DNA of 64,000 nucleotides, taken from an uncultured Actinomycetota bacterium. Lineage in GTDB: Bacteria > Actinomycetota > Thermoleophilia > Solirubrobacterales > Solirubrobacteraceae. Under the pieces are notes generated by a model. It worked only from the letters and a program-made list of their open reading frames with translations. It had not been told where the DNA came from and made no database searches. Where the stretch lies: contig CAWHMI010000004.1 in NCBI GenBank assembly GCA_963830395.1, positions 264,980-328,979 of the forward strand, written 5' to 3'. Position numbers and translations under genes: made by a program. Of the stretch, positions 8,622-36,127 are shown piece after piece. Positions within the stretch are counted from its first letter, which is position 1, and each line of letters begins with the position of its first letter.

Positions 8622-9872
8622 ATGGTGCTGCGCACACGGAAGTCCGCGGACCGCACCCGGCTGACCGAGTTCCGGGTGCTCGTGGTTCTCACCGCGCTCG
8701 GGCTGATCGCCGCCGTCGCCGGCGCGGTCGCGCCGCTCGGGTTCGCCGCGTCCTCCAGAACCCAGCCGGACAAGACGGCGGTCCCGCCGGGATTCGTCGG
8801 AGTCGACGCGGACGGGCCGCTGTTCACCCCGGGCACGCCGCTTGACTTCGGGCGCCAGACGTTCACCATGGTCGCCAGCGGGGTCCAGAGCATCCGCGTT
8901 GCGTTCAGCTGGGCGGCGGCGCAGCCATATCCGAGCATTGCCGATGTGCCCGCCGATCAGCGGTCGCAGTTCAGCGAGGTGGAAGGACGGCCGACCGATT
9001 TCGCGACCACCGACACAGTCGTCGGCGACGCGGCGCGCGCCCGCCTATCCGTCCTTCCGACGGTCCTGTACGCGCCTGCGTGGGACGCGCTGCGCAACCG
9101 CAACGGCGTGGCCACCCCGCGGCGGAACGCTCCCTACGCCGCCTTTCTGACAACTCTGATCGGACGCTATGGACCCCATGGGAGCTTCTGGAGTGAGCAC
9201 CCAGCGCTTCCGAAGCGGCCGATCCGGATGTGGCAGATCTGGAATGAGCCGAACCTCAGGTACTACTGGAAGCAGCCCTTTGCCGACAGTTACGTGGGCC
9301 TGCTCCGGGCGGCACACACCGCCGTCAAGCGAGCCGACCCCCGCGCCAAGGTGGTGCTCGGCGCGCTCACCAATCTCGCCTGGAGATCCCTGGGGCAGAT
9401 CTATCGAATCCGCGGCGCCCGGGGACTGTTCGACATCGCGGCCGTCAACGGGTTCACCAAGACCCCGGCCCACGTGATGCTGTATTTGCGCTTCGTGCGC
9501 GCCGCGATGAACCGGTCCGGCGACAGCGCCAAGCCGATGCTGGCCACCGAGCTGAGCTGGCCCTCGGCCTCGGGCCAGACGTCGAGCCGCTATGACTTCG
9601 ACACCACGCAGGCGGGCCAGGCGCGCAATATCGCGACGCTGCTGCCACTGCTCGGAGAGCAGCGCGCGGCGCTCCGGCTGGCGGGCTTCTACTACTACAC
9701 CTGGATCGGCGACGAGGTGCGGGGCGCGCAGGCGTTCGACTTCGCCGGGCTGCTGCGCCTGCACGCCGGTCGCGTCACCGTCAAGCCGGCGCTGGGGGCG
9801 TTTCGGCGGGGTGCACTCGCCCTGGAGCGCTGCCGGCGCAAGGGGCGCGTGGCCACCAGCTGCATCGCATAG
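8622..9872 (+). CDS. Clan GH-A (GH39/GH5-like) glycoside hydrolase with N-terminal TM/signal
   Basis: WQIWNEPN acid/base motif and MLATELSWP nucleophile motif. Confidence 0.8.
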   Translation: MVLRTRKSADRTRLTEFRVLVVLTALGLIAAVAGAVAPLGFAASSRTQPDKTAVPPGFVGVDADGPLFTPGTPLDFGRQTFTMVASGVQSIRVAFSWAAAQPYPSIADVPADQRSQFSEVEGRPTDFATTDTVVGDAARARLSVLPTVLYAPAWDALRNRNGVATPRRNAPYAAFLTTLIGRYGPHGSFWSEHPALPKRPIRMWQIWNEPNLRYYWKQPFADSYVGLLRAAHTAVKRADPRAKVVLGALTNLAWRSLGQIYRIRGARGLFDIAAVNGFTKTPAHVMLYLRFVRAAMNRSGDSAKPMLATELSWPSASGQTSSRYDFDTTQAGQARNIATLLPLLGEQRAALRLAGFYYYTWIGDEVRGAQAFDFAGLLRLHAGRVTVKPALGAFRRGALALERCRRKGRVATSCIA

Positions 9873-9882
9873 CGTCTCGGCG

Positions 9883-11130
9883 TCAGCGCCGGCACGAGCT
9901 TGCCCGGCTCTGGCTCGCCGCCGTCCGCTGGCCCGCCGCCGTCCGCTGGCCCGCCGCCGTCCCCTGGCCCCCCGCGTCCCGCAGTCCCGCCGCCAGCGCC
10001 GCGATGCCGGGGGTCGGCGCGCCGGCCTGATCGGGGCTGGCGATCCCAAACCAGTCCTGGCTGTTGCCGGGGTCACGCTGCGGCGTTACCCACGTGTAGA
10101 GCAGGGCGGCGGCCACGCCACAGTCCAGCTGACCCAGGGCGGTGAACGCCCGGACGATGTATCCCGGCCGCGCACGCACCGGCACGTAGCCGAGCGCCCC
10201 CGGCGGATCCGTCGTCCATCCGAACTCGGTTACGTAGAGCGGCACCGCGCCCATCCCGAGCGCTGCCAGCGCCGCCCGCGTGCGCCTCACCTTGGCCACC
10301 AGCACCGCCGGCGACCCATATGGGTGGATGGCGACGCCGTCGACGTGACCCGGTAGGGCCGGCGCCGCCGCGACCATCTGGGCGAGAAACGCCGCCGGGT
10401 CGGTCAGCCCACCGACGATCACCCTGATCCCCGGGTTGACCGCATCGATCGCCGCTCGGGCCGCCACGTACAGCGCCGCATAGCGGCCGGCATCCGGCGA
10501 CGGTGTCCAGAACTCCCAGTTGTCGGGCTCGTTCCAGATCTCGATCGTCCGCACCGGCGCCGCCGCCAGCTCCAAATGCTCACGCCAGAACGTACCGTCC
10601 GCTCCGTAGCGAGCCGCGAACGCGGCCGCGTAGGCCGCGTAGTCGGCGTCGGAGCTGGGAGGCGAGTGGTCCTGGCCCGGGATCGACCGCGCCCATGGCG
10701 CCGAGTAGTCGAGGATCGGCAGCCAGGTCAGGCCATGACTCGCCAGCGCCCCGGCGATCCGGTCATCGAATCCCCAGTCGTAGCTGTGGCGGCCATCGAC
10801 CGGCGCCGTTGGCTCGCTCGCCTCCCACAGCGAATCGCTGCGGGCCAGCGTTGCTCCCGTGGCCCGCAGCGCAGCGAGCTGCGCCGATATCTGCGCCGGC
10901 GAAAAGGTCATGTCGTTGAACAGGCGGTTGACGTTGACCCCGTAGGCCTGGCCAGCCGGCGCGGGCAGCCCCGGATCGAGCCTGGCCGGAACCGGCGGAC
11001 CCCCACGGGGACGAGGACCGGAACCTGCGACCAACAGCGCCACTCCCGCGGCGGCCAGCGCTCCGGCCACGACCCCGGCCGCCCACCACCGGCGCCGCCG
11101 GCCCGCCGTCACCGCCAGCCGCGGCGCCAC
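9883..11130 (-). CDS. Clan GH-A (GH39/GH5-like) glycoside hydrolase with N-terminal TM anchor
   Basis: IEIWNEPDN, VAIHPYG and LYVTEFGW motifs; start inferred at GTG 11130. Confidence 0.8.
   Translation of the reverse strand: MAPRLAVTAGRRRRWWAAGVVAGALAAAGVALLVAGSGPRPRGGPPVPARLDPGLPAPAGQAYGVNVNRLFNDMTFSPAQISAQLAALRATGATLARSDSLWEASEPTAPVDGRHSYDWGFDDRIAGALASHGLTWLPILDYSAPWARSIPGQDHSPPSSDADYAAYAAAFAARYGADGTFWREHLELAAAPVRTIEIWNEPDNWEFWTPSPDAGRYAALYVAARAAIDAVNPGIRVIVGGLTDPAAFLAQMVAAAPALPGHVDGVAIHPYGSPAVLVAKVRRTRAALAALGMGAVPLYVTEFGWTTDPPGALGYVPVRARPGYIVRAFTALGQLDCGVAAALLYTWVTPQRDPGNSQDWFGIASPDQAGAPTPGIAALAAGLRDAGGQGTAAGQRTAAGQRTAASQSRASSCRR
9917..9970 (-). repeat. 18-bp tandem repeat x3 at the C-terminus (GQRTAA)
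   Basis: gccgccgtcc(g/c)ctggccc x3. Confidence 0.85.
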
Positions 11131-13133
11131 GACGATCCGGTCGCTCGCAGCTGCCGCCGCTCCCGCTCCGCCGGGTGCCCGAGCAGCCGCTTGAAGGCCA
11201 GCCGCGAGGCGAACGTGATCATCTGTGCGCCCGCGTCCACCGCGGCCCATCGCGGGCCCAGGCCGCCCCGCACCGCCTGGTGCCGGGCGCGGGCCAGGCG
11301 CTCGAACGCCTCGCCGCCGAACGCCGGACCGGTGGCGTGGGCGCGGCGGTGGATGACGCGCGCCGACGGCCACAGCCACGTCGCGATCCCCTGCCGGCGG
11401 GCGCGCAGCGCCAGCTCCAGATCCTCGCCGTACATGAACATGGACTCGTCGAACGGCCCCAGCTCGCGCAGCGTCCGCGTGCGAGCCACCAGCGCGCAGC
11501 CGACCGCCCAGCCGACCCGCCGCGGGCCCTCGGCGCGCCACGGGGCGAGCGCGACCCCGGCCCGTCCGGGAACGGCGGCGGGCGGTAGCAGCGACCGGAT
11601 CAGATCCGCCGGCGATCCGGGGCGGGGATGCACGGTGTCCTGCAGGCTGCCGTCGCTGTTCAGCACCCGGGGGGCGAGCAGGCGCGGCGGGCGATCCTGG
11701 CGCAGCGCCTCCGCCGCGAGCTCGAGCAGGGAGTCGTCGAGCGGCTCGACGTCGGGATTCAGCAGGGCCGCCACCGGCGTCCGCACGTGCGCCAACCCGC
11801 GGTTGCAGGCGCGGCCGAAGCCGAGGTTCTCCCCCAGCTCGATCGTCGTTACCCCGCCGTGGCTGCGGGCGACCGCCAGGCTGTGGTCGCGCGAGGCGCA
11901 GTCGACGACCACGATCTGCACCCCGGGCAGCCGGCGGTTCATCGAGACCAGCAGACGCTCCAGCACCCCGGCCGAGTCGTGGGTGACCGTGACCACCGCC
12001 AGCGAGCTCGGCGCCGCGCGCGGGGGCGGGCTCGCCCGCGGGCCGGCGGCGCCGCGGGCCAGCGAGGCAAATCGGGTGCGGGCGCTCGCAAGGTCAAATC
12101 GCTGCCGGGCCCGGGCGCGGCCCTGCTCGCCGAGCGTTGCCGCCCGGCCGGGGTCGGAGACGAGCGCCACCAGCGCCGCGGCGGCGGCCACCGCGTCGCC
12201 CGGCGGATACAACACGCCGCAGTGGGAGTCGACGATCTCGCCCGGTCCGTACGCGGCGGGTACCACCGCCGGCCGGCCGGCGGCGAGGGCCTCGAGCACC
12301 GCCAGTCCGAATGGCTCCCGCGGCGCACAGTGCAACAGGCACGTCGCTCGGGCCAGCGCCGCGGCCGGATCGGCCACTGGCCCGGCCAGCTCCACGGCGC
12401 CGGCCAGATCGGGCAGCTGCGCCCGCGCCCGCAGGCGCTCGAGCAGCGCGGTGTCGCCGACTGGGGGCGCGCCGACGAACCGCAGCCGCAGCCCGGGCAG
12501 GCGCCGGCGGGCGAGGGCGACCGCCTCCAGCGCCAGATCGGGTCGCTTCCACTCGGTCACGGCGCCGAGGACCAGGACCTCCGGCGGCGAGACCGGGTCC
12601 CGGTCGCCGGCGAAGGTCGCCACGTCGATCCCCGGGGCAACGACGCATAGCCGGTCGCCGAGTTGGCCCCGGGGATCGAGGTCGCGGGCGACCGCCCGAG
12701 ATGGCACCACCACCAGGGCCGCCTGGGCGGCGGCGACGCGGACCGCTGCGCCGATCAGCCGCCCGGGCAGGAGATCGTGGTGCGCGATGACACATCGTTC
12801 CCGGCCGGCGCCCAGCAGCCGGGCGATTGCCGAGCGCATGCCCCAGGCGACGATCAGATCGGGCGCCAGGCCGCGGGTGACCCGACGCACGTCACGTGCG
12901 TGCCCGGCGATCGCCACCGCCGCCCGCACCCGCGCCGGCACGCTGGCCCGGAGCGCCAGCGGTCGCGCCACCAGCGCCAACACCGGAATGCCGGCCGCCC
13001 GGGCCCGCTCGGCGAGATCGCCCGGTGGGCAGGCGATGACGGCCTCATCCGAAAGGCCGCCGGCGAAATCGAGCAGCACCCGTTCGGCGCCACCGAGAAT
13101 GCCGGAGTAGCTGACGAACAGGAGCCGGGCCAA
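11109..13133 (-). CDS. Bifunctional GT4 + GT2 glycosyltransferase
   Basis: N-half: LFVSYSGILGGAERVL, REPFGLAVLEALAAG (GT4). C-half: VVTVTHDS, VVDCAS, LLNPDVE, FMYGEDLE (GT2). Confidence 0.9.
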   Translation of the reverse strand: MARLLFVSYSGILGGAERVLLDFAGGLSDEAVIACPPGDLAERARAAGIPVLALVARPLALRASVPARVRAAVAIAGHARDVRRVTRGLAPDLIVAWGMRSAIARLLGAGRERCVIAHHDLLPGRLIGAAVRVAAAQAALVVVPSRAVARDLDPRGQLGDRLCVVAPGIDVATFAGDRDPVSPPEVLVLGAVTEWKRPDLALEAVALARRRLPGLRLRFVGAPPVGDTALLERLRARAQLPDLAGAVELAGPVADPAAALARATCLLHCAPREPFGLAVLEALAAGRPAVVPAAYGPGEIVDSHCGVLYPPGDAVAAAAALVALVSDPGRAATLGEQGRARARQRFDLASARTRFASLARGAAGPRASPPPRAAPSSLAVVTVTHDSAGVLERLLVSMNRRLPGVQIVVVDCASRDHSLAVARSHGGVTTIELGENLGFGRACNRGLAHVRTPVAALLNPDVEPLDDSLLELAAEALRQDRPPRLLAPRVLNSDGSLQDTVHPRPGSPADLIRSLLPPAAVPGRAGVALAPWRAEGPRRVGWAVGCALVARTRTLRELGPFDESMFMYGEDLELALRARRQGIATWLWPSARVIHRRAHATGPAFGGEAFERLARARHQAVRGGLGPRWAAVDAGAQMITFASRLAFKRLLGHPAERERRQLRATGSSWRRGWR

Positions 13134-13326
13134 CCCCGGGCAGGCTATCCGCCGGCCGCCGCCGGAGCGGCGGTGGCCAAGCCGGGCTGCGGCGGCGCAC
13201 GCAGCGGGCACTTCGCGACCAAGCGATGCCAGCCCGGTGGCGCGTGGTCCCTCGCGCCCGCGAGGCGGGAGCGATGAACCACCCCTCGCCAGGGTGCTAG
13301 CGCTTGGTCGTGAAGTGCCCGATCCG

Positions 13327-13386
13327 GGTCACCGAGCCGTCGCGCCTCGCGGGTCGCCGAGCCGTCGCGCCTCACGGTCACCGAGC
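13327..13386 (+). repeat. ~25-bp tandem repeat x2.4 in the divergent intergenic region
   Basis: ggtc(a/g)ccgagccgtcgcgcctc units. Confidence 0.75.
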
Positions 13387-13427
13387 GGCCGGCCCGGCGT
13401 GCTGCTGCACCCCGGGAGCCCGCCGCA

Positions 13428-13441
13428 TAGACTGCGCCGCC
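13428..13441 (+). promoter_or_regulatory. Putative -10 element (TAGACT) of a leaderless promoter
   Basis: tagactgcgccgcc directly before GTG 13442; identical to 8608-8621. Confidence 0.6.
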
Positions 13442-14671
13442 GTGGGGAGTGAGTCCGTACTCTCGTTGGCCGCACCGCGGGTGGCGCTGGTCCACGACTT
13501 TCTGCTGGACATGCGCGGCGCCGAGCGGGTGTTCGCGGAATTGTGCGAGATGTGGCCGGACGCCGACATCTTCACCGCGGTCTACGACGAGGACGGCACC
13601 GACGGGCGCTTCGCCGATCGCCACGTGATCACCTCGTTTTTGCAGCGCCTGCGGCCGTCGGCGCGGACGTTCCGCGCGCTGCTGCCGCTGTACCCGGCGG
13701 CGGTCGAGTCGTTTGACCTGTCGGGCTATGACCTGGTGATCTCGAGCTCGTCGGCGTGGGCCCATGCGGTGCTCTGCCACGAGCACACCATCCACGTCAG
13801 CTACTGCCACAACCCGTTTCGCTACGCCTGGAACGATCGCGACAGCACGCTGGCGCGGCGCCGCAATCCGATCACCCGCGAAGCCCTGCGCGTCACGTTT
13901 CGCCGCTGGCGCCAATGGGACTGGCTCGCTGCTCAGCGCACCAACCGCTACGTCGCCAACTCCAGCCTCACCCAGGCACGGATCCGCGCCTACTTCGGGC
14001 GCGAGGCGGCAATCGTCCACCCCCCGGTGCAGACCGCCCGGTTCGCGCCCGGCCCGGTCGGGGACTACTACGTGGCGGTTGCCGAGCTGATGCCTCACAA
14101 GCAGCTCGACGTCGCGATCGAGGCCTTCAATTCGCTGTCGCTTCCGCTGGTGGTCATCGGCGACGGTCCCGATCGTCGCCGGCTGCGGCGGATTGCCGGG
14201 CCGTCGATCAGCTTCGCCGGGCGTCTGGGCGACGCCGCGGTAGCGCAAGCGCTGCAGGGGGCGCGGGCGCTGGTCCTGACCTCGGTGGAGGAGTTCGGAA
14301 TCGTCGCCGTCGAGAGCCAGGCGGCGGGTCGTCCGGTGATCGCCCGAGCCGGCGGGGGGGCGCTGGAGACGATCGTCGACGGCGCCACCGGCAAGCTGTG
14401 GTCCGGCGGTCCCCTCGAGCTGGCGGCGGCGGTTCTGGCGTTCGATGAGTCCGCCGTCGATCCGCAGGCGTGCGTGCGCCAAGCCGCTCGCTTTGACTCG
14501 GGCAGCTTCCGCCGCGGCATGGAGCGCGAGGTCGCCGCCGGGTCGGCCGGCGATACACGTCCGCTGGGTGCGCTTCGCCCGCCGCCCGATGCGGGGCCGG
14601 GGGAAGGTGTCGGTCAGCCGCTCGCCTCCACCCGCCTGGTCGAGCGGGCGGCCAGAGACGCACCCCGCTGA
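13442..14671 (+). CDS. GT4-family glycosyltransferase
   Basis: VALVHDFLLDMRGAERV, ISSSSAWAH, EEFGIVAVESQAAGRPVIA. Confidence 0.92.
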   Translation: MGSESVLSLAAPRVALVHDFLLDMRGAERVFAELCEMWPDADIFTAVYDEDGTDGRFADRHVITSFLQRLRPSARTFRALLPLYPAAVESFDLSGYDLVISSSSAWAHAVLCHEHTIHVSYCHNPFRYAWNDRDSTLARRRNPITREALRVTFRRWRQWDWLAAQRTNRYVANSSLTQARIRAYFGREAAIVHPPVQTARFAPGPVGDYYVAVAELMPHKQLDVAIEAFNSLSLPLVVIGDGPDRRRLRRIAGPSISFAGRLGDAAVAQALQGARALVLTSVEEFGIVAVESQAAGRPVIARAGGGALETIVDGATGKLWSGGPLELAAAVLAFDESAVDPQACVRQAARFDSGSFRRGMEREVAAGSAGDTRPLGALRPPPDAGPGEGVGQPLASTRLVERAARDAPR

Positions 14672-14672
14672 G

Positions 14673-16250
14673 GTGAGCGCGGCAACCGGCGCACGATCGG
14701 ACGCGCGCGTCCGCCGAGCGGTCGTCGCCATCGTCGCCGGCGTCCTGCTGGCGGGACCGACGGCGTTGGCATTCTTCACCGGTGGCTACTTCGCCGGGCC
14801 ACGCGCCTGGGCAGGGCTCGGCGCCTGGCTGCTGGTTGCGGTCGCCGCCGTGGTCGTCCCCGGCGCGTTGCCGCGCGACCGCGTGGCCGGGCTGGCGATC
14901 GGGGGGCTGGCCGGGCTGGCGGCCTGGACCCTGCTGTCGATGCTGTGGGCGCCGATCACCGGCGAGGCCTACCACGCGGGACAGATCGTGATGCTCTACC
15001 TCGGCGCGTTGATCGCCGCCTCGATGCTGCTCGGCGGATCGCCGGCGCAGCGTTGGGTCGAGCCGGCGCTGGCGGCGGGCGCGCTGGTGGTGGTCGGCTA
15101 CGGGCTGTCGGAGCGGCTGTTGCCCGGTCTCTTGACGTTCGCCCGCTCGGTCAGCGCTGAGGGGCGACTCGAGCAGCCGCTCACGTACTGGAACGCGATG
15201 GGCGAGCTGGCCGCGATCGGATTTGTCCTGTGTGCTCGGCTGGCTGGTGACCCGGACCGGCCGGGGGAGCTGCGCGGCGCCGCCGCCGGGGCGGCCGCGC
15301 CACTCGGGCTGGGGTTGTACATCTCGTTCAGCCGAGGAGCGTTGTTCGCCTGCGTGGCCGGGCTGATCGCCCTGATCGTGCTCGCGCCGCGCCGCGAGCA
15401 GCTCGCCGGCGGGCTGGTCTCGGTGGCTGCCGGCGTGCTCACCGCCGCGGCGGCGGCGCCGTCGGGTCCGGTCACCGGTCTCTCCGGATCGCTGGCGACG
15501 CGTGAGCGTGACGGCGCCATCACCCTGGCGCTGCTGGTGATCATCGGCCTGGCCGCGGCGGCGGCGGCGCGCCGGCTCGCCGAGCGCGGTCCGACCGGCC
15601 GGTTGCGCGTGCCCCGCCGTGCCCCCCTGATCGCCGCCGGGGTGGTGTGTGCCGGCTTGGCCGGGGCGATCGTGCTCGGCGCCAAGGAGACCAGCGCCGC
15701 GTCGCCCTCGCTGTCGGGCGGTGCCACCCGCCTGGTCACGCTGCAGAGCAACCGCTACGCCTACTGGGACGTCGCGCTCCGCGCGTTTGCCTCCTCGCCG
15801 CTGCACGGGGTGGGAGCCGGCGGGTGGAGCGTGGAGTGGCTGCGCTGGCGCACGGTGAGCGAGTTCGCGCAGGACGCCCACTCGCTGGAGCTGCAGACGC
15901 TGGCCGAGCTGGGCGTGGTCGGGATCGCGCTGCTGCTGGCGTGCTTCGGCGGCATCGCGATCGCCGCTCGCCGGGCGCTGGCCGCGACGCCCGCCGCCGC
16001 CGGGCCGATCGCCGCGCTGGTGGTGTACCTCGCCCACAGCCCGCTGGACTGGGACTGGCAGATGCCGGCGGTGACGCTGGTGGCGGTCCTGCTGGCGGGG
16101 ATGGTGCTGGCGCTGTCCGAGGTGCCGGCCGCCGACGGCCGGCGGTCGGCTGCCCCGGAGGCCGGCCCCGATGGCGCTACAGCTCCTCGGCGATCCGCGG
16201 CGCCTCGCGGTGAAAGATCCACACCCCCATCACGCCCAGCACGATCATGA
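14673..16250 (+). CDS. O-antigen ligase-like (Wzy_C/WaaL/WsaB-type) membrane protein
   Basis: Multi-TM; RLEQPLTYWNAMG, SNRYAYWDVAL, PLHGVGAGG and DAHSLELQTLAELG motifs. Confidence 0.85.
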   Translation: MSAATGARSDARVRRAVVAIVAGVLLAGPTALAFFTGGYFAGPRAWAGLGAWLLVAVAAVVVPGALPRDRVAGLAIGGLAGLAAWTLLSMLWAPITGEAYHAGQIVMLYLGALIAASMLLGGSPAQRWVEPALAAGALVVVGYGLSERLLPGLLTFARSVSAEGRLEQPLTYWNAMGELAAIGFVLCARLAGDPDRPGELRGAAAGAAAPLGLGLYISFSRGALFACVAGLIALIVLAPRREQLAGGLVSVAAGVLTAAAAAPSGPVTGLSGSLATRERDGAITLALLVIIGLAAAAAARRLAERGPTGRLRVPRRAPLIAAGVVCAGLAGAIVLGAKETSAASPSLSGGATRLVTLQSNRYAYWDVALRAFASSPLHGVGAGGWSVEWLRWRTVSEFAQDAHSLELQTLAELGVVGIALLLACFGGIAIAARRALAATPAAAGPIAALVVYLAHSPLDWDWQMPAVTLVAVLLAGMVLALSEVPAADGRRSAAPEAGPDGATAPRRSAAPRGERSTPPSRPARS

Positions 16251-19471: not shown

Positions 19472-19521
19472 TGAAGCGTACCGCGACCGCCGGTGGATCA
19501 CCCCGTGGAGCCCCGGCGAGG

Positions 19522-22260: not shown

Positions 22261-22353
22261 GGAAGCCGTGGCCGCGCCGCTTGCGCGGCCGGGCTGCAGT
22301 TGTCCGCCGTTGGACGCCCATTCGCCAACGTTACCCAGGCCCCGCCGCGAGCC

Positions 22354-27475: not shown

Positions 27476-27500
27476 ACCTTCCGCCACCGGCAGCGGGCGT

Positions 27501-28280: not shown

Positions 28281-28290
28281 CGGGGTCCAG

Positions 28291-29961
28291 GTGCGGGCCG
28301 CGCACGAGACGATCGTCGTAGGCGATCGGCGACGGCGGGGCGCGCCCGCCGTGCCTGACCGCTGGCAGAGCAGCCCGTCAGCGGTGATGGTCGTGCTCGT
28401 CGGCGCAATCACGGTGGTGGGTGTCCTGTTGCGGCTGCCCTCGTTTGCTGACTCCCTGTTCGGAGACGAGCTGTCGACGTATTTCATCGTCACTGGCCAC
28501 AGCGCCGGCCGCGTCCTCTACCTGCTGCGCGGGCATTCGGTCGACCTCAATCCGCCGTTGTTCTTCCTGCTCGCCTGGGTCGCCGAGCGGTTCGGGGACG
28601 GGGCGCAGGCGTTGCGGTCGGTGTCGCTGCTGGCTGGAACCGCCGCGATCCCGCTCACGTATCTGCTCGGTCTGTGGACGGTGGGTCGCCGCGCTGCCCT
28701 GGTCGGCGCCGGGCTCATGGCGCTGAGCCCGTTCTTGATCTTCTACTCAACCGAGGCGCGCGCCTATGCGCTGTTGCTGGCGCTCGTGCTGGCCGGCGCC
28801 CTCTGTCTGCTGCGAGCGCTCGACACGCGGCGGGCGCGCTGGTGGGCGGCGTACGCGGTCGTCTCCTGCGCGGCCATGTACACGCACTACATCGCGGTGT
28901 TCTTCCTTGGCGCGCTGTTCGTGTGGGCGTTCCTGACCGCGTCCGGCGCGCGACGGCCGTTGCTCGCCGCCAACATCGCGGCGGCGATCGCCTACATCCC
29001 GTGGCTGCCGACGTTGCTCAAGGACACGCGCTCTCCCGGCAACCTGGTGATCAGCTTTCTGGAGCCGTTCAGCTCCCATCTCGTCGTCAGCTCGCTGGCG
29101 CGGTGGTCGATCGGCCATCCGTTTCTCCCGGTCGCGAGGCTGCCCGGCCATGCCGCGCTGGCGATCGGGGTCGTCGGTCTGGCGGCGGGCTTGCTCGGTG
29201 TCCTGATCAGGGCGCGTCGCGCGCAGGACGGAAACGGACTCACGGGCCTACCGGGCGGCGCGGTGCTGGTGGTCGTGCTCGTGGTCGCCCCGCCGGCCGA
29301 GATCGCCCTGTACAGCCTGCTCGGCCACAGCGTGTGGGAGCCGCGCAACCTGATCGCCGGATGGCCCGCGCTGGCGCTGGCGCTGGGGGCGCTGGTGACC
29401 AGCGCGCGCGGACCGCTGCGCATCGCCGCCGTGGGCTTGGTGATCGCCGCCTACGGGATCGGCGCCGCGAAGATGCTCGAGTCGGGCAACCAGCGACCCG
29501 ACTACGACGCGGCGGTGAGCTTCATCGACCGGGTCGGCCCACCCGGAGCCCCGGTGCTCGAGGTGCCCGGCCCAACGCCGGGACCGCTGACCGAGCTCGA
29601 TGCGGCATTCGCTGCGGCTGGGCCGTCGCCGCGAGGGCGCCATCCGGTGCTGCGCCTGGGGTTCCCCTCGCGCAGCGCCCTGCTGCGGGCCCGCCCCTAT
29701 GCGCTGGTGCCGTCGACCCCGCCGGCCATCGTCATCAGACAGACGGTCCACCTGGCCCGGGGCGGGGCGCTGTTCGTGGTCACGTTTGGACAGAACCCGG
29801 CGTTTCTCGGCTCCCTGCTCAAGCCGTTGCCCGCGCGCTTTCGCCAGGTGCAGACGAGGACGTTCGCTGGCCTGGTGCCCGTGTCGGTGTACCGGTTCCG
29901 CGATCCTCGCGCCGGCGCAGCGCCACCACCACCTGGTGCGGATCGCCGATCAGGAGGCTGA
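28291..29961 (+). CDS. GT39/ArnT-like membrane glycosyltransferase (start may be 28387)
   Basis: Multi-TM; FGDE, NPPLFFLL, YSTEARAYALL and YTHY motifs. Confidence 0.8.
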   Translation: MRAAHETIVVGDRRRRGAPAVPDRWQSSPSAVMVVLVGAITVVGVLLRLPSFADSLFGDELSTYFIVTGHSAGRVLYLLRGHSVDLNPPLFFLLAWVAERFGDGAQALRSVSLLAGTAAIPLTYLLGLWTVGRRAALVGAGLMALSPFLIFYSTEARAYALLLALVLAGALCLLRALDTRRARWWAAYAVVSCAAMYTHYIAVFFLGALFVWAFLTASGARRPLLAANIAAAIAYIPWLPTLLKDTRSPGNLVISFLEPFSSHLVVSSLARWSIGHPFLPVARLPGHAALAIGVVGLAAGLLGVLIRARRAQDGNGLTGLPGGAVLVVVLVVAPPAEIALYSLLGHSVWEPRNLIAGWPALALALGALVTSARGPLRIAAVGLVIAAYGIGAAKMLESGNQRPDYDAAVSFIDRVGPPGAPVLEVPGPTPGPLTELDAAFAAAGPSPRGRHPVLRLGFPSRSALLRARPYALVPSTPPAIVIRQTVHLARGGALFVVTFGQNPAFLGSLLKPLPARFRQVQTRTFAGLVPVSVYRFRDPRAGAAPPPPGADRRSGG

Positions 29962-30967
29962 ACTCCAGCGGCTCGAACAGCGCAGACCAGCGCTCGCGGA
30001 TGTAGGCGGCGGTCAGGACCGTCTCGCCGTAGGTGATCCCCTGGGCGGGCGCGGGCTCGCCCAGCGGCTGCCCGCCATGGGGGGCGAACAGGTACAGCGG
30101 CTCGACGAACCTGGCCTCAGGTCGGGGACCCAGGGATCGGAGCGCCGGCGCCAGCAGGTCGGAGACCCGTAGGTAGGCGGGCGGGCGCACCGTGACGACG
30201 AGCAGGCCGCCGGGCGCGATCGAGGCGTGCAGCGCGCGCAGGCTGGCTTCGTGCGCGGGCTCGGACAGGTGGGTGAAGACCGAGAAGGCGTAGACCAGGT
30301 CGAAGCGCTCGGAGAACGGCAGGCGCTGGGGCACGAAGTCGCACCGGGCCAGCCGCGCCGGCACGCGGGTGCGGCGGCAGACGTCGAGGATCGCCTCCAC
30401 CGGATCGCAGCCGAACAGGGACTCCGGCGCAACGTCGCGAGCCAGAAAGCGGGTCAGGCGTCCCCAGCCGCAGCCGAAGTCCAGCACGCGACACTGCTGA
30501 AGGCCGACCGCCGAGTGACGCGCGCTCAGCTCGCGCAGCCGGTTGTAGAAGGCCAGGCTCTGGGTGGCCAGGGCGGCGCCGCTGGTCCCGTTCCAGGTCT
30601 GCTGCAGGGCGCGATCGGGGACGTCGGGGAGCAGTGCCCTGATGTTGGGATAGAGGTCGTACTCCTGGGTCAGCAGGAGCGCCCACAGATCGCCGTCGAG
30701 CTCGCGAAACTGCGCCAGCGCCTCGACGCCCGCTCCGGCGCAGGCTGCGTCCAGGCGGGAGAGCTCAGGGTCCCACAACGTCGCAAGCCACGACGCAAAG
30801 CTCGCCGGGCCGGACGGGCGGGCATCCCCTTGGCCGCGAGCCGCGCGAACTGTCTGACGGGCGGTCAGCGACAGACCCGAGGTCAGCGATCGCAGCGCTG
30901 CCCGGTACCTGTCCCGCGGCGGGTGCAGTGGCGCGGGCGCGACGCGTGGGGATCTGTTCGCGATCAC
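29819..30967 (-). CDS. Class I SAM methyltransferase
   Basis: VLDFGCGWGRL, FGCDP, FDLVYAFSVFTHL; start uncertain. Confidence 0.85.
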   Translation of the reverse strand: MIANRSPRVAPAPLHPPRDRYRAALRSLTSGLSLTARQTVRAARGQGDARPSGPASFASWLATLWDPELSRLDAACAGAGVEALAQFRELDGDLWALLLTQEYDLYPNIRALLPDVPDRALQQTWNGTSGAALATQSLAFYNRLRELSARHSAVGLQQCRVLDFGCGWGRLTRFLARDVAPESLFGCDPVEAILDVCRRTRVPARLARCDFVPQRLPFSERFDLVYAFSVFTHLSEPAHEASLRALHASIAPGGLLVVTVRPPAYLRVSDLLAPALRSLGPRPEARFVEPLYLFAPHGGQPLGEPAPAQGITYGETVLTAAYIRERWSALFEPLEFSLLIGDPHQVVVALRRREDRGTGTPTRAPGQRTSSSAPGESARATA

Positions 30968-31023
30968 GGCAGGCTATACGCGGCTGGATGGGCCGGCGGC
31001 GGAGGGATATGTACGGTTGCGCG

Positions 31024-31959
31024 ATGACCTCACCGCAGCTCCCCCTACCGCCGCTCGATCTGGCGGTGCGGGTCGGCGAGCTCGGCGGTGACCAGCCCTG
31101 GGCCCAGTACGAAGCGATCGGATCCTCGCTCAAGGCGGTGATCTCGTCGTCGCTGCCGGCCGACTGGAGCTGGGACGGACGGCGAGGGCTCGATTTCGGC
31201 GCCGGCGCCGGCCGCGTGCTGAGGCATTTCGGCCCGGAGGCGCGGAGCGCCGAGCTGTGGGGCTGCGACATCGACGCCGGGAGCGTCTTCTGGCTACGGG
31301 ACAACCTGTGCCCGCCGTTTCACGCCTTCCTGGTCAGCGAGGAGCCACGGCTGCCCCAGACCGACGGGTTCTTCGATCTCGCCTGGGCGCTCTCGGTGTT
31401 CACCCACCTCGGGCGCCACTGGGCCGGCTGGCTGGCCGAGCTGCACCGCGTGCTCAAGCCCGGTGGGCTGCTGATCGTCTCCTACATGGGCGCCGAGATG
31501 GCCCGCCAGCTGCTGGGCGGGGCCTGGGATGAGAACCGCAGCGGTATGAGCGTGGTCGGCGCCGGACGCCCGTGGAGCGAGGGCGGCCCGTGGGTGTTTC
31601 ACTCCGAGTGGTGGCTACGCTGCCACTGGGGCCGCGGCTTCGAGGTCGTGCGCCTGGACCGCAACGATGTCCCGGGCACCCATGGCCTGCTCGTCCTCGC
31701 CAAGCGGCCGGTGGCCATCACCGCCGAGGAGCTCGAGCGCCCGGAGACGGGCGAGCCGCGGGAGCTCGCAGCGCTGGCGACCAACGTCAGCCAGCTGCAC
31801 GGCGAGGATGTACGCGTCCGGGCCCGGCTGGCGCAACTGGAGGCGAGGCTGAGCCGGCGGTGGACAGCGAGAGTCAGGCGGCGGATCGCCTCCACGGTGG
31901 CCGGCGCGTATCTCCAGGCGCTCCGCGACGGCGGGATCAATCGCCGCCGGGGGAGTTGA
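31024..31959 (+). CDS. Class I SAM methyltransferase with C-terminal coiled coil
   Basis: LDFGAGAGRV, WGCDID, FDLAWALSVFTHL. Confidence 0.88.
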   Translation: MTSPQLPLPPLDLAVRVGELGGDQPWAQYEAIGSSLKAVISSSLPADWSWDGRRGLDFGAGAGRVLRHFGPEARSAELWGCDIDAGSVFWLRDNLCPPFHAFLVSEEPRLPQTDGFFDLAWALSVFTHLGRHWAGWLAELHRVLKPGGLLIVSYMGAEMARQLLGGAWDENRSGMSVVGAGRPWSEGGPWVFHSEWWLRCHWGRGFEVVRLDRNDVPGTHGLLVLAKRPVAITAEELERPETGEPRELAALATNVSQLHGEDVRVRARLAQLEARLSRRWTARVRRRIASTVAGAYLQALRDGGINRRRGS

Positions 31960-31966
31960 CGGCACG

Positions 31967-34696
31967 ATGCTGCGGGTGACCCTGGACTGCGAGCTCCCGC
32001 CGGAGGTGGCGGTCGGACCCGGCACGGCGGTGTTCGTCTGTGGCTGGTGCTTCTCGCCTCGCGCCCGGATCAGGAAGCTGGAGTTCGTCCTCGACGGCGA
32101 GGCCCAGCCGGTGATGGCGGCCCGGATGCCGCGTCTGGACCCGTTCCGCGAGCTGCACCCGATGGTCGATCCGTTCGCCGCCGCCGCCCTCTCAGAGGAC
32201 CCGGCCTCCGCGGCGGACCCGCGCCTGCTCAGTTACCGCAGCGGGTTCTGGGGGCTGGTGCGCATCCGCGGCCCCCGCGCCCCGGGATACCTGCCGCTGG
32301 CGCTGCGGGCCGAGCTCGAGGACGGCGAGACGGCCGTGGCCCCGCTTGCGCAGCTCCGGGTCGCGGCCGCCATCAAACCGGGCGCCGCCGCGCCGGGCGC
32401 TGGCGCTTGGCCCGCAGACCGAAGCGGGCCTGCGGTCGCGATCTGCTTGGCCACCTTCAACCCGCCCGAGGACCTGCTCCGCCGCCAGCTGGACTCGATC
32501 CGCGAGCAGACGCACGAGAATTGGATCTGCCTGATCAGCGACGACTGCTCGAGGCCCGAGGGTCAGCGCGTGCTGGACGACGCGATCGGCGGCGACGGAC
32601 GCTTCGTCGTCTCCCGCTCGCCGCGGCGCCTCGGCTTCTACGCCAACTTCGAGCGGGCGCTGACGATGGTCCCGGGTGGCGCGGCGCTGGTGGCGCTGTC
32701 CGATCAGGACGACGCCTGGCATCCGGACAAGCTCAGCAGCCTGATCGCCGCGCTCGGCGACGCGCAGCTGGTATACAGCGACGCGCGCGTCGTCTCGCGC
32801 GCCGGCGAGCTGATCTCCGATACCTGGTGGGCGCGACGGCGCAACAACCACGCCGACCTGCTGTCGCTGTTGATGGCCAATGCGGTCACCGGTGCCGCGT
32901 CGCTGTTTCGCTCCGAGCTGCTCGACTACGCGCTGCCGTTCCCGCCGGCCCAGTTCGCCCACTTCCACGACCACTGGCTGGGCCTGGTCGCGCTCGCGGT
33001 GGGGAGTATCTCCTACGTGGACCGTCCGCTGTACGACTACGTCCAGCACGGCGACGCGTCCCTGGGCCACGCCGCCGCCAACCAGATGCCGTCATTGCGT
33101 GAGCGCCTGGCGAGCGGACGCGACCTCGCCGAGCGGGTTCGGCTGTGGCGGATGCACTACTTCGTCGACTTCTGCCGGCTGATCCAGTTCGCCACCGTGC
33201 TGGAGATGCGCTGCGGTGCCCGGATGTCGTCGCGCAAGCGACGCGAGCTCACCGCGTTGCGGCGGGCCGAGCGCTCGGCGCCGGGGCTGGCGCGGTTCGC
33301 GGTGCGCGGCATCCGGGAGCTCGCCGGGACGCCGGAGACGCTGGGGGCCGAATGGCTGCTGCTGCACGCTCTAGCGTGGCGTCGCCTCGTTGCGCTCACC
33401 GCCCGGGATCGGCCCCAGCCGCGGCTGCGTCTCGACGCGCTGCCGCCGCCCACGCTGCTCCAACCTCCCGGTCGGCGCGGACTGCACGAGGCCGCCGCGG
33501 CGATCGCCGACAAGGTCGCGCCGCTGCGCTGGATGCCCGCCCCCGACGTGCCGGCGCGGATCAACATCCTGCTCCCGACGCTCGACCTGCGCCACCTGTT
33601 CGGTGGCTACATCGCCAAGCTCAACCTGGCCCGCCGGCTGACCGAGCTCGGCCACCGGGTGCGGCTGGTGACCGTGGATCCCGTCGGCCCGCTGGCGTTC
33701 GACTACCGCCGCCAGATCGAGTCCTACCGCGGTCTGGGCGGGCTGTTCGAAACAGTCGAGCTGGCCTTCGGGCGCGAGTCGGCGGGCATCGAGGTGAGCC
33801 CCGCGGACCGCTTCGTGGCCACCACCTGGTGGACGGCGCACGTCGCCCGCGACGCGGTGGCGCTGCTGGGCGGCGGCCGGTTCGCGTACCTGATCCAGGA
33901 ATACGAGCCGTTCACCTTCGCGATGGGCAGCTACGCGGCGCTGGCCGACGAGTCCTACCGGTTTCCGCACGTCGCGCTGTTCTCCAGCGAGCTGCTGCGC
34001 GACTACTTCCGCCGGCACCGGCTCGGCGTCTACAGCGCCGGCGTGGTGGCCGGAGACTCGGCCTCGGCCTCGTTTCAGAACGCCATCACCGCGGTGGCGG
34101 CGCCGTCGGCCGCCGACCTTGATCGGCCGGGGCCGCGCCGGCTGCTGTTCTACGCCCGGCCCGAGGCGCACGCGGCGCGCAACATGTTCGAGCTCGGCGT
34201 GCTGGCGCTGGCCCGGGCGCTCGCCGAAGGGGCGTTTGCTGGCTGGGAGCTGCACGGCATCGGCACCGTCGGGCGGGGCGGTGACGTCTCGCTCGGCGCC
34301 GGTCGCGCGCTGACGCTGCTGCCCCGCACCGATCAGGCGGCCTACGCCCGCCTGCTGCGCGAGCACGACGTCGGGCTGGCGCTGATGTACACACCGCATC
34401 CCAGCCTGGTGCCGATCGAGATGGCCTGCGCCGGAATGCTCACCGTGACCAGCAGCTTCGAGAACAAGACGCCGGAGGCGATGGCGGCGATCTCGGGCAA
34501 TCTGATCGTCGCCGAGGCGGGCGTGGAGTCGCTGGCCGTTGCGCTGCGCGAGGCCGCGGCGGGCGCCGGCGACCTGCAGCGCCGGGCCGCCGGCAGCCGG
34601 GTCAGCTGGAGCAGCGACTGGCGGACCTCGCTGCCCGACGAGCTGCTCCAGCGACTGATGGCGTCGCTGACATCGAACGACGCCGCGGCGGCGTGA
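31967..34696 (+). CDS. GT2 + WsaF-like (rhamnosyltransferase-type) fusion glycosyltransferase
   Basis: GT2 motifs (ICLATFNP, LSDQDD, FHDHW) followed by GGYIAKLNLA, VATTWWTA, YLIQEYEP, LFYARPE and MYTPHPSLVPIEMA, resembling WsaF. Confidence 0.82.
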   Translation: MLRVTLDCELPPEVAVGPGTAVFVCGWCFSPRARIRKLEFVLDGEAQPVMAARMPRLDPFRELHPMVDPFAAAALSEDPASAADPRLLSYRSGFWGLVRIRGPRAPGYLPLALRAELEDGETAVAPLAQLRVAAAIKPGAAAPGAGAWPADRSGPAVAICLATFNPPEDLLRRQLDSIREQTHENWICLISDDCSRPEGQRVLDDAIGGDGRFVVSRSPRRLGFYANFERALTMVPGGAALVALSDQDDAWHPDKLSSLIAALGDAQLVYSDARVVSRAGELISDTWWARRRNNHADLLSLLMANAVTGAASLFRSELLDYALPFPPAQFAHFHDHWLGLVALAVGSISYVDRPLYDYVQHGDASLGHAAANQMPSLRERLASGRDLAERVRLWRMHYFVDFCRLIQFATVLEMRCGARMSSRKRRELTALRRAERSAPGLARFAVRGIRELAGTPETLGAEWLLLHALAWRRLVALTARDRPQPRLRLDALPPPTLLQPPGRRGLHEAAAAIADKVAPLRWMPAPDVPARINILLPTLDLRHLFGGYIAKLNLARRLTELGHRVRLVTVDPVGPLAFDYRRQIESYRGLGGLFETVELAFGRESAGIEVSPADRFVATTWWTAHVARDAVALLGGGRFAYLIQEYEPFTFAMGSYAALADESYRFPHVALFSSELLRDYFRRHRLGVYSAGVVAGDSASASFQNAITAVAAPSAADLDRPGPRRLLFYARPEAHAARNMFELGVLALARALAEGAFAGWELHGIGTVGRGGDVSLGAGRALTLLPRTDQAAYARLLREHDVGLALMYTPHPSLVPIEMACAGMLTVTSSFENKTPEAMAAISGNLIVAEAGVESLAVALREAAAGAGDLQRRAAGSRVSWSSDWRTSLPDELLQRLMASLTSNDAAAA

Positions 34697-35706
34697 CCGG
34701 CTCATCGCCCCCGGCGCCGAGCTCGCCGGCGCGTTCGGTGGCCGTGGTCGTGCCCAACTGGAACGGCTTGCGCTGGCTGCCCGGCTGCCTGGGCGCGGTC
34801 GCCCGCCAGCGGCCCGCGCCCGCCGAGGTGCTCGTCGTCGACAACGGCTCGCGCGACGGGTCGCTTGACTACCTGCGCTCGGCGAAGCCCCCCATCGAGG
34901 TGACGGTGCTGGAGCTGGGGGCCAACACCGGGTTCGCCCACGCGGCCAACCGGGGGATGGCGCACGCCCACGCTGAGTTGGTGGCCCTGATCAACACCGA
35001 TGTGGTGATCGCCGACGACTGGCTGGCGCGGATGACCGGGGCGCTGGCCGGCGATCCGCAGGCGGCGTCGGTGACCGGCAAGCTGCTCGCCATGCACGAG
35101 CCCGGGCGGATCTATGACGCCGGCGACATCCTGCGCCGTGACGGAGCCTGTGAGCAACGCGGCCGCTTCATGGTCGACGACGGGCGCTGGGACCAGGCCG
35201 GCGACGTGTTCGGCGCGTGCGCCGGTGCTGCGGTGTACCGGCGCGACGCGGTGCTGGCGACCGGGGGCTTCGACGAGCGCTTCTTCGCCTACCTGGAGGA
35301 CGTCGACCTGGCGCTGCGCCTGCGGCTGGCCGGCTGGACCTGTCGCTACGAGCCGGTGACGGCGCGGCACGCCGGCGGCGGCTCGGCGCATCAGCTCCGA
35401 GGCGGCTCGCACCGGCTCGTCGCCCGTAACACGCTGGTGCTGGTGGCCAAGGCGTTCCCCGCCCGCTGGCTGCCCCTGGTCGCCTACCGGCAGTGCGGGT
35501 GGGCGTGGCACGCGCTGCAGGAACGCCGTCTCCGAGCCCACCTGGCCGCGCTGGCGGCGGCGGCGCCGTTGCTGCCGGCGGCGCTGCGCCAGCGGCGGGG
35601 CCTGCGGCGCGGCGCCCGGATCCCGATCGATCAGGCAGTGCCCGCCCGACCGTTCCGGGGGCCTCGGGCCGGCGGGCATCCGGCCCAGATCAGCGGTGTG
35701 TCTTGA
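34693..35706 (+). CDS. GT2 glycosyltransferase (WbbL-like)
   Basis: VVVPNWNG, VVDNGSRD, NTGFAHAAN, LINTD, FDERFFAYLEDVDL. Confidence 0.9.
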   Translation: MTGSSPPAPSSPARSVAVVVPNWNGLRWLPGCLGAVARQRPAPAEVLVVDNGSRDGSLDYLRSAKPPIEVTVLELGANTGFAHAANRGMAHAHAELVALINTDVVIADDWLARMTGALAGDPQAASVTGKLLAMHEPGRIYDAGDILRRDGACEQRGRFMVDDGRWDQAGDVFGACAGAAVYRRDAVLATGGFDERFFAYLEDVDLALRLRLAGWTCRYEPVTARHAGGGSAHQLRGGSHRLVARNTLVLVAKAFPARWLPLVAYRQCGWAWHALQERRLRAHLAALAAAAPLLPAALRQRRGLRRGARIPIDQAVPARPFRGPRAGGHPAQISGVS

Positions 35707-36127
35707 CGACCTGCACGAGCGCGGTCACGTGCCGCAGCGCTTGGAAGAGGGCAATGCCGCTGGAGGATCTGGCCAGTTGCGCCCAGGCCTCGGCGTTGAG
35801 CGGCTCGCTTCTGGTGACGCTCGCCGCCAGCTGCCGCGCCCGGCTGCGGTCGCCGCTGGCCAGCGCCACCTGGGAGCGCAGCAAGGTCACCTGACGATCT
35901 GGGTTCAAGAAGCCCCCCGCCGCCAGCAGCGCATCGGCGCGCCGGGCCTGATTGCGAACCAGCGGCCGGCCGGTGTCGATGATCGCCGTCGCCCGGTCGG
36001 TGCTCACCGCCTGGCGCACTCCGAGCGCGAACCAGGCGGCCACGATCAGCGCCACCACCAGGAGGGCGCCCGCGACCGCCGCCGCCGGGCGCCGGCCGGG
36101 GACGGGCGGCGACGGACTCGCGCTCAG
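35690..36127 (-). CDS. Hypothetical membrane-anchored helical protein
   Basis: TM segment [17 protein letters not shown] and a TPR-like [12 protein letters not shown]. No canonical start codon was identified. Confidence 0.5.

Follow-up and report, generated by a model that had tools for sequence, protein, structure and literature searches.

What envelope polymer could be built by a 27-kb run of glycan genes in an uncultured soil actinobacterium, and to what would it be attached in a host without lipopolysaccharide (LPS)? The genes lie at 8.6-36.1 kb of a 64,000-nt stretch (the window) of contig CAWHMI010000004.1, assembly GCA_963830395.1, a metagenome-assembled genome (MAG) of Solirubrobacterales lineage from a soil metagenome; sequence nearly identical to the window was found in soil metagenomes only. 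We consider it probable, at roughly 75%, that this region is the main envelope-glycan locus of its host and that it follows the ATP-binding cassette (ABC) transporter-dependent, cap-terminated route, in which the polymer is made in the cytoplasm on a lipid carrier, terminated at its non-reducing end, recognized by the C-terminal domain of Wzt and then exported (PMC9445017, PMC11231755).

Because the window has a G+C content of 72%, genes were called by codon-position G+C and then scanned against Pfam and NCBIfam. The cluster comprises 22 genes, nearly all for glycan assembly, and ends at typA; all pathway modules were present and contiguous. It contains one wzm, two wzt genes, a Wzy_C protein, a GT2-WsaF fusion and seven more glycosyltransferase (GT) genes of the GT2/GT4 type, together with a polyprenyl-phosphate-sugar-synthase-like GT2 and an adjoining GT-C enzyme, two PslG-like clan GH-A glycoside hydrolases and six methyltransferases, two of which are TylF-type. 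The initial annotation, made from the sequence alone, had listed these parts, and every one of them was confirmed in its place. Its reading of an ABC-transporter-dependent route with cap-reading Wzt proteins, a WaaL/WsaB-family ligase and a WsaF-type transferase also stood, the latter two assignments having come through profile and structure searches, and its GT39 label did not.

To place the locus among its relatives, one genome per species was scanned with the cluster's centrally placed methyltransferase MT24, which found 255 relatives, and the best 80 loci were examined by tblastn of all window proteins; neighbouring genes were compared by clustering, with Pfam run on representatives, and by motif patterns only. 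All 80 loci were from MAGs, nearly all labelled Solirubrobacterales, Solirubrobacteraceae, Thermoleophilaceae or, more broadly, Actinomycetota/Actinomycetes, with one Planctomycetota, and the top MT24 identity was 73%. Conservation across the order was observed directly, as were the gene families and folds described below. The recurrent core consisted of Wzm, Wzt, MT24, both Glyco_tranf_2_5 enzymes, GT2-WsaF, Wzy_C, GT4, GT4-GT2 and the two hydrolases, and several of the loci also adjoin typA. Variable genes included those for TylF, MTc, MTd, the GT2/GT-C pair, extra methyltransferases, an epimerase, a ManC-like nucleotidyltransferase and an Acyl_transf_3 acyltransferase, the last in 28 loci. 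A constant core with variable decoration genes gives the locus, as far as gene content can tell, the look of a surface-antigen (O-antigen-type) locus. Separately, a PhyH-like Fe(II)/2-oxoglutarate dioxygenase (weak Pfam match, E 8e-5), which is not in the window, was seen in 34 loci (e.g. L073:8219-9280) and hints at hydroxylated or otherwise oxidized glycan variants.

The exporter genes belong to a tightly coupled minus-strand run of six genes at 16177-23259 (Wzm, Wzt1, TylF1, GT2a, Wzt2 and GT2_5a). Its exporter features are:

16177-17073, minus strand: Wzm, ABC-2 permease, single copy (ABC2_membrane E 2e-12, above cut-off; weak galactan_ABC_perm match)
17070-18383, minus strand: Wzt1, nucleotide-binding domain (NBD) plus type-1 cap-binding domain (ABC_tran and Wzt_C, 29 bits)
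20995-22260, minus strand: Wzt2, NBD plus type-2 cap-binding domain (ABC_tran and Wzt_C, 46 bits)
17523-18281, no strand: 759-nt segment identical to 21460-22218 (exact match), the NBD cores of both wzt genes

Both Wzt proteins matched the full-length Aquifex aeolicus Wzt structure 8dku (Wzt1, E 3e-57; Wzt2, residues 32-387, E 2.8e-59), and the alignment spans the full length of both, including the carbohydrate-binding domain (CBD), which in A. aeolicus binds a 3-O-methyl-mannose/3-O-methyl-rhamnose cap (PMC9445017). Orthology of the exporter to the mycobacterial galactan exporter was considered and rejected, the NCBIfam scores being far under cut-off. The two CBDs are 40% identical to each other (E 5e-40), and orthologues of both CBD types were found in 13 other genomes, so the wzt duplication is old. 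We then compared 22 ATPase cores, leaving out L015 and L016, which are two contigs of one MAG. Sixteen of the 22 were nearest to the paralogue in their own genome, at 96-100% identity, the best orthologue in any other genome being 81-93% identical. In three deeper genomes the NBD pairs were diverged (74-77%) and grouped by cap-domain type. Judged from these sequences, the Wzt motor domain is under concerted evolution (gene conversion) while the divergence of the reader domains is preserved, and the twin pattern suggests, being compatible with it, that two differently capped chain types share one channel. Within the 21-kb loci no co-variation of TylF with the twin wzt genes was seen, and type-specific conserved residues separated the two CBD clades at only two columns, too few to name specificity determinants. 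Further paralogue pairs in the window are TylF1/TylF2, GT2a/GT2-WsaF and GT2_5a/GT2_5b, and the pairs suggest that the locus is an expanded, two-track form of the compact loci of more distant relatives. L015 and L016 themselves carry the locus in almost the same form (NBDs 99.6-99.7% identical), which points either to mixed strains in the bin or to a real duplication.

Chain building would fall to the following glycosyltransferases, listed with a small protein that lies beside them:

31967-34696, plus strand: GT2-WsaF two-module glycosyltransferase, candidate polymerase, 909 residues (Glycos_transf_2, WsaF_N, WsaF_C)
19522-20994, minus strand: GT2a, paralogue of the N-terminal half of the GT2-WsaF fusion (Glycos_transf_2)
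11109-13211, minus strand: GT4-GT2 two-module glycosyltransferase (Glycos_transf_1 E 7e-23, Glycos_transf_2 E 2e-14)
13304-14671, plus strand: GT4 (GT4b) glycosyltransferase, true start probably later (Glycos_transf_1 and Glyco_transf_4)
22354-23259, minus strand: GT2_5a glycosyltransferase with coiled coil and SIGWRLTAPLR tail (Glyco_tranf_2_5 E 5e-14)
23376-24305, plus strand: GT2_5b glycosyltransferase with coiled coil and SRSWRVTEPLR tail (Glyco_tranf_2_5 E 3e-10)
34693-35706, plus strand: GT2e glycosyltransferase (Glycos_transf_2 E 1e-19; weak rhamnosyltransferase-subfamily match E 8e-6)
35690-36118, minus strand: small transmembrane-anchored protein resembling tetratricopeptide repeat (TPR) proteins (TPR_14 E 0.002, under cut-off)

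The fusion scored 63 bits for WsaF_N and 129 bits for WsaF_C, both over the cut-off of 27, and its C-terminal half matched the solved Geobacillus rhamnosyltransferase WsaF (PDB 2x0d) with E values of ~7e-29 to 7.8e-29. The residues tested in the WsaF paper (PMC3898925 is among the papers cited on slg, the Geobacillus S-layer glycosylation cluster) were mapped onto the 2x0d alignment. The dTDP-contacting residues Y247, R249, R254, Y308, H326 and E333 are retained and K302 is replaced by Arg, while two acceptor-tunnel residues are altered (D171 to Glu, F176 to Thr). The proposed rhamnose signature of WsaF, PHPSYPPLE, reads PHPSLVPIE in the fusion (residue 810), so that PHPS, the next Pro and the final Glu are kept; of 45 full-length orthologues, 31 gave a match to the motif pattern and each of these has Leu for the central Tyr, while the other 14 gave no match. 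By sequence, the fusion is a true WsaF-family transferase; its donor is probably a dTDP-linked 6-deoxyhexose, rhamnose as such not being established by the residues kept. An exact-protein look-up of the fusion returned no record. Residues 2-480 of the fusion align with GT2a at 43% identity (E 4e-107), and GT2a (19522-20994) and the fusion (31967-33400) have in common an N-terminal domain of ~130 residues before the GT2 module that has no Pfam match. GT2_5b is 48% identical to GT2_5a, GT4 orthologues occur at 62-91% identity in 26 loci, and homologues of the small TPR-like open reading frame (ORF) occur in 20 loci, mostly adjoining GT2e or GT2-WsaF.

Modification and capping of the chain would be the work of six methyltransferases:

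18383-19645, minus strand: TylF1, TylF-type O-methyltransferase with C-terminal leucine zipper and basic tail, start probably ~19471 (TylF E 2e-72)
25440-26531, plus strand: TylF2, TylF-type O-methyltransferase with leucine zipper and basic tail (TylF E 5e-68)
24280-25344, minus strand: MT24, Methyltransf_24 methyltransferase with helical C-terminal tail (Methyltransf_24 E 4e-10)
26545-27475, plus strand: MT23, the sixth methyltransferase, with C-terminal hydrophobic helix (Methyltransf_23 E 1.7e-18)
29819-30967, minus strand: MTc, class I methyltransferase dependent on S-adenosylmethionine (SAM) (Methyltransf_25/12/11, E 1e-15 to 1e-11)
30928-31959, plus strand: MTd, class I SAM methyltransferase with coiled coil and basic tail, start probably ~31024 (Methyltransf_11 E 1e-13)

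The TylF domain was matched over its full length in TylF1 (244 bits) and TylF2 (230 bits; cut-off 23), and in the PDB the two enzymes matched the O-methyltransferases 4cdz, MycF and NovP at E 1e-50 to 1e-56, all three of which we take to methylate 6-deoxyhexoses. MT23 shows an apparent +1 frameshift near 27297, because of which simple ORF calling missed it, and its orthologues (52-71% identity) run on in the next frame. Contigs from two soil-metagenome runs (X1 and X2), assembled independently, each have one base fewer at 27297/27299 (region 27285-27302), so that MT23 is in all likelihood an intact gene and the shift an error of assembly. A minus-strand ORF at 26761-27447, coding-like by G+C at third codon positions, was rejected, having a low-complexity translation and lying antisense to MT23. 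All six methyltransferases need SAM, and they must act ahead of export. The description of the glycan as multiply O-methylated would follow from nothing but the count of six methyltransferases, some of which could instead provide alternative chain caps.

Leucine heptads (positions a/d) followed by a basic tail were found at the C-termini of TylF1, TylF2, MT24 and MTd, with only 3-4 repeats on inspection of the sequence, and a short leucine zipper with a basic, Trp/Arg-rich tail also ends both Glyco_tranf_2_5 enzymes. The orthologues of the latter and of MTd sharply keep the motif S-x-S-W-R-x-T-x-P-L-R; it was present in 85 of 91 ORFs orthologous to GT2_5a, and MTd orthologues end in SLSWRLTRPLR. 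Coiled-coil terminators are a hallmark of the ABC-transporter-dependent, cap-terminated pathway (PMC11231755). Because the coils are so short and the tag also sits on glycosyltransferases, the zipper with its Trp/Arg-rich tail is, by analogy, probably a tether or docking tag at a membrane complex and not a proven ruler. Inside the TylF1 zipper, a 42-nt tandem duplication at 18421-18504 (copies 79% identical) adds 14 residues, exactly two heptads, so that the coil length of TylF1 was changed by whole heptads.

Transfer of the finished chain would involve a further membrane protein:

14673-16250, plus strand: WaaL-family (Wzy_C) polytopic membrane protein, candidate ligase (Wzy_C, 43 bits; cut-off 31.7)

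A sequence search of the PDB gave no match for this protein. An AlphaFold2 model built from 24 orthologues (predicted local distance difference test score, pLDDT, 81.7; predicted template-modelling score, pTM, 0.84) had the ligase WaaL, 7tpg, as its sole significant PDB fold match (E 2.6e-5, probability 1.0, TM-score 0.39/0.49). Among the orthologues S220-R221-G222 and R361 are invariant and H403 is nearly so, lying within a DAHS..LQ..AELG motif that is kept in at least 90% of the 24; the Arg residues and the outer-loop His typical of the WaaL family are thereby accounted for. The sequence and the modelled fold are compatible alike with a ligase, a protein O-oligosaccharyltransferase or a polymerase, and cannot tell these apart; a PglL_A domain was absent from the protein in the Pfam scan. 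The gene is a core member of the cluster, seen in at least 35 of the 80 loci, and in relatives it stands in a fixed block with GT4b and GT4-GT2.

Decoration of the chain outside the membrane would be carried out by a pair of adjoining genes:

~27537-28280, plus strand: polyprenyl-phosphate-sugar-synthase-like GT2, DPM/PpgS/AglJ-like (Glycos_transf_2 E 1e-18)
28291-29961, plus strand: GT-C glycosyltransferase with ArnT-like fold (PMT_2 E 8e-12)

In the NCBIfam scan the GT2 scored 86 bits for AglJ and 74 bits for PpgS, both far under the equivalog cut-offs. The AlphaFold2 model of the GT-C enzyme (pLDDT 89.6) matched ArnT first (5ezm, E 2.9e-8, TM-score 0.52-0.54), then ALG12 and ALG9, with Pmt4 fifth (E 2e-6), and the loop-1 DE motif D59-E60 is nearly invariant in its orthologues. 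The initial annotation had called this partner a GT39 enzyme; its best fold match belongs to GT83 and Pfam found no MIR domain in it, and on its model it is a polyprenyl-phosphate-sugar-dependent enzyme of the ArnT type. GT2 and GT-C lie side by side in ~11 loci, and in six or more relatives there is an overlap of MT23 with the GT2 gene; by this overlap and its C-terminal hydrophobic helix, MT23 is likely tied to the side-chain step. A GT2 plus GT-C decoration module parallels the GacI/GacL and PpgS/Rv3779 wall-polysaccharide systems, and ArnC/ArnT is a further GT2/GT-C precedent for side chains. The streptococcal group A carbohydrate enzymes GacI/J/L and mycobacterial PpgS/Rv3779 likewise pair a polyprenyl-phosphate-sugar GT2 with a GT-C that acts on the exported polymer; unlike in those systems, the pair here is translationally coupled to the tail-anchored MT23 and its GT-C is nearest to ArnT by fold, and no GtrA/GacJ-type partner was seen in the cluster. 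Two relatives (L019:1603-5597 and L012:1619-6690) have a three-gene module that encodes an epimerase/dehydratase along with a DPM-like GT2 and a large polytopic membrane protein lacking annotation, and that looks to be another kind of unit for adding side chains. A second PMT_2 GT-C gene, truncated by the window start, lies at 82-1524 (plus strand), 7 kb from the cluster, and is followed by a Peptidase_A4 family gene at 1543-2778 (plus strand).

The cluster also encodes two hydrolases:

8625-9872, plus strand: GHa, membrane-anchored or secreted clan GH-A hydrolase, PslG-like (PslG 4zn2, E 2.7e-6; no Pfam match)
9883-11133, minus strand: GHb, second GH-A hydrolase with N-terminal transmembrane anchor, start approximate (weak GH39 match, E 7e-4)

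Neither GHa nor GHb had a Pfam match above cut-off. N207-E208-P209, the putative acid/base motif, and E309, a candidate nucleophile, are invariant in ten GHa orthologues; GHb is 29% identical to GHa (E 2e-14), and GHb orthologues occur at 58-69% identity in 18 loci. An N-terminal membrane anchor is present in both proteins. Like PslG of the Pseudomonas aeruginosa Psl locus, which is the best solved relative of GHa, these are anchored, putative clan GH-A enzymes within a polysaccharide locus; unlike PslG, they show low similarity (E 2.7e-6 over ~120 residues), come as two paralogues and accompany an ABC-transporter pathway, not a Wzx/Wzy pathway.

The order of events, the sugars, how many methyl groups there are and where, and the acceptor are matters of inference from these parts, and the course would be as follows. 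An initiating enzyme encoded elsewhere would prime polyprenyl phosphate, and an adaptor would be built on the primed carrier by GT4 and GT2 enzymes. The chain would then be extended in the cytoplasm by the two-module enzymes, namely the GT2-WsaF fusion, its paralogue GT2a and the GT4-GT2 fusion, while SAM-dependent O-methyltransferases would modify it and cap its non-reducing end. Several of these enzymes would probably be tethered or docked at a membrane complex through their zippers and basic Trp/Arg-rich tails. The C-terminal carbohydrate-binding domains of Wzt would read the cap and thereby permit export by way of the one Wzm channel; with one ATPase core and different cap-binding domains, the two Wzt proteins may pass two differently capped chain types through the same channel. 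Outside the membrane the GT-C enzyme would add side-chain sugars from a polyprenyl-phosphate-sugar donor made by the adjacent GT2, a donor that the tail-anchored MT23 may methylate. The two PslG-like hydrolases would trim or release the polymer, and the WaaL-family enzyme would move the finished chain to its acceptor.

Several observations weigh against this assignment. The window ORFs include no initiating phosphoglycosyl transferase of the WecA/WbaP type, no sugar-nucleotide genes and no acceptor gene, and a motif screen of the 80 loci found no initiating transferase either; an initiator may lie elsewhere in a genome, as wecA does in E. coli. The source is a MAG, all NCBIfam matches were far under their equivalog thresholds, and the Wzt_C score of Wzt1 falls slightly under the Pfam cut-off of 30.4 bits. 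The methyl-pocket residues of A. aeolicus Wzt (L300, T346, A348 and W362) are changed in both CBDs in a HMMER alignment that is of low confidence there, so the caps cannot be named and need not be methyl groups. The zippers, at 3-4 heptads, are far shorter than the WbdD ruler, which makes a ruler function doubtful.

Among characterized systems, the slg cluster of Geobacillus stearothermophilus NRS 2004/3a shares with this locus a monoderm host, Wzm/Wzt export, a WsaF-type GT-B enzyme, a Wzy_C-family transferase and a small TPR protein. Its parts are WsaP, WsaC/D, WsaE, WsaF, Wzm/Wzt, WsaA/WsaB and RmlABCD, and its chain is methyl-capped (PMC2943079, PMC3898925). Unlike slg, the window has no WsaE-type fusion of methyltransferase and glycosyltransferase, its methyltransferases being separate and zipper-tailed, and no WsaP, rml or S-layer gene; its WsaF is fused to a GT2 module and has a changed signature; and it has two Wzt proteins, six methyltransferases, the GH-A hydrolases and the GT2/GT-C module. 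The S-layer analogy drawn in the initial annotation fits in its parts list; a WsaE-type fusion, WsaP, rml and S-layer genes are lacking, and the rhamnose signature is kept in part only. The absence of rml genes that it had noted was borne out, no rml-type family occurring in any coding-like ORF of the window; the regions flanking the cluster in the 80 relatives gave none either, by motif screen and by Pfam on recurrent neighbours only.

The assembly systems of E. coli O8/O9a and Klebsiella O3/O5/O7/O12 O-antigens (WbdA/WbdD, WbbB, ORF6-O7; PMC11231755), taken with A. aeolicus WzmWzt (PMC9445017), are alike in multi-module polymerization in the cytoplasm and would be alike in termination at the non-reducing end, coiled-coil terminators, a cap-reading Wzt CBD and WaaL-family ligation. 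The zipper and basic tail of the cluster's enzymes recall the coiled coil and membrane helix of WbdD. In contrast to these systems, the Solirubrobacterales host lacks LPS, no kinase module was detected in the cluster, two Wzt paralogues accompany one Wzm, the coils are short and sit on at least six enzymes including glycosyltransferases, and the cap-pocket residues are not conserved.

The nature of the acceptor admits two readings. One, which we regard as possible though on the unlikely side, is protein O-glycosylation in the style of the Geobacillus S-layer, with the Wzy_C protein as a WsaB/PglL-type O-oligosaccharyltransferase acting on Ser/Thr/Tyr of a surface or S-layer protein and the TPR-like protein helping. 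With no lipid A-core in a monoderm actinobacterium, an enzyme of the WaaL family must have some other acceptor; Wzm/Wzt, WsaF and Wzy_C are common to the cluster and slg; WsaB, WsfB, PglL and PilO all have Wzy_C, and the conserved small transmembrane-anchored TPR-like ORF recalls WsaA, which lies beside WsaB (PMC2943079). Just upstream, a lipoprotein-like ORF at 7173-8078 (plus strand) has the lipobox LVGC followed by a Ser/Thr-rich linker (HHSTSTATQHSTSTPTSSTASAAS). This reading is opposed by the lack of an S-layer or S-layer-homology (SLH) protein in the window, of a PglL_A domain in the Wzy_C protein and of a TPR_14 match above cut-off; the lipoprotein had no homologue next to the cluster in the 80 relatives, no S-layer reports for Thermoleophilia were found in the literature searched, and the fold search cannot separate a ligase from an O-oligosaccharyltransferase. 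The ORF at 7173-8078 could in its own right be a candidate O-glycan acceptor.

The other reading, also tentative, is a wall-anchored secondary polysaccharide, which a LytR-CpsA-Psr (LCP) phosphotransferase encoded elsewhere would attach to peptidoglycan, leaving the Wzy_C protein an accessory role, such as the joining of a second chain or ligation to a glycolipid. Streptococcal rhamnose polysaccharides and mycobacterial arabinogalactan are precedents for LCP-type attachment. LCP genes stand beside the cluster in two Thermoleophilaceae MAG loci (L046:930-2522 and L060:1757-3229; LytR_cpsA_psr E 4e-37), the GT2 plus GT-C module is like GacI/GacL and PpgS/Rv3779 (with the PpgS family match seen here), and the locus is kept order-wide beside a housekeeping gene. 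Of the 80 loci, however, only 2 have an LCP gene next to the cluster, and the window has none, and the place of Wzy_C in the conserved core (at least 35 loci) and in its fixed block with GT4b and GT4-GT2 argues for a central and not an accessory role.

It is very unlikely that two systems lie side by side here, the left block (GHa, GHb, GT4-GT2, GT4b and Wzy_C) making a Psl-like, Wzy-dependent exopolysaccharide and the right block the ABC-exported glycan. Psl-type loci do have a hydrolase resembling GH39 together with GT4 enzymes and a Wzy_C-type protein, PslG is the best PDB match of GHa, and the five left-block genes form a fixed block in relatives; yet neither a Wzx/MOP flippase, a chain-length regulator nor an initiator was found in the window or the 80 loci (Pfam on recurrent neighbours, motif screen), and in compact loci (e.g. 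L034, L044 and L055) the left block always adjoins wzm/wzt. A methylated polysaccharide that stays in the cytoplasm, like mycobacterial MMP/MGLP (methylmannose polysaccharide/methylglucose lipopolysaccharide), was rejected, since the cluster has an exporter, a GT-C acting outside the membrane, anchored hydrolases and a ligase.

Returning to a single ABC-exported, cap-terminated glycan, the pathway logic is already known, and what is new is the lineage and the variant features, not the mechanism. The initial annotation had held that such a glycan was not described for this lineage, and in the literature searched we likewise found none for Thermoleophilia or Solirubrobacterales. On Thermoleophilia S-layers or Solirubrobacter wall polysaccharides the one relevant result of the search was the sugar composition of whole cells of a cultured species, Solirubrobacter deserti (rhamnose, galactose, xylose and ribose); this species also has phosphatidylinositol mannoside (PIM) lipids (PMC10722151). 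With rhamnose and PIM lipids present, rhamnan-type polymers and glycolipid anchors are therefore both possible.

A bolder and, as we see it, rather improbable extension is that the monoderm envelope of Solirubrobacterales carries a polymer like an O-antigen, varying from strain to strain, with one Wzm served by two Wzt proteins whose motors are gene-converted and whose cap readers are distinct, with the zipper and an SWRxTxPLR tag docking at least six methyltransferases and glycosyltransferases in one membrane-bound assembly line, and with a WaaL homologue ligating the chain to a non-LPS anchor, for example a PIM-type glycolipid or a lipoprotein. If true, a single exporter would sort two kinds of chain that differ in their caps, for example in methylation, and mixed Wzt dimers may be what does the sorting. 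Two cap readers on one gene-converted motor are a natural experiment that could show how Wzt proteins evolve new cap specificities. Solirubrobacterales are among the commonest soil actinobacteria, yet the literature searched described no envelope glycan from them. Owing to its order-wide conservation with variable accessory genes, the locus is an obvious candidate for the main surface antigen of the order, and the polymer, if it is that antigen, would be a candidate for phage receptors, for desiccation tolerance and for adhesion to soil particles or roots.

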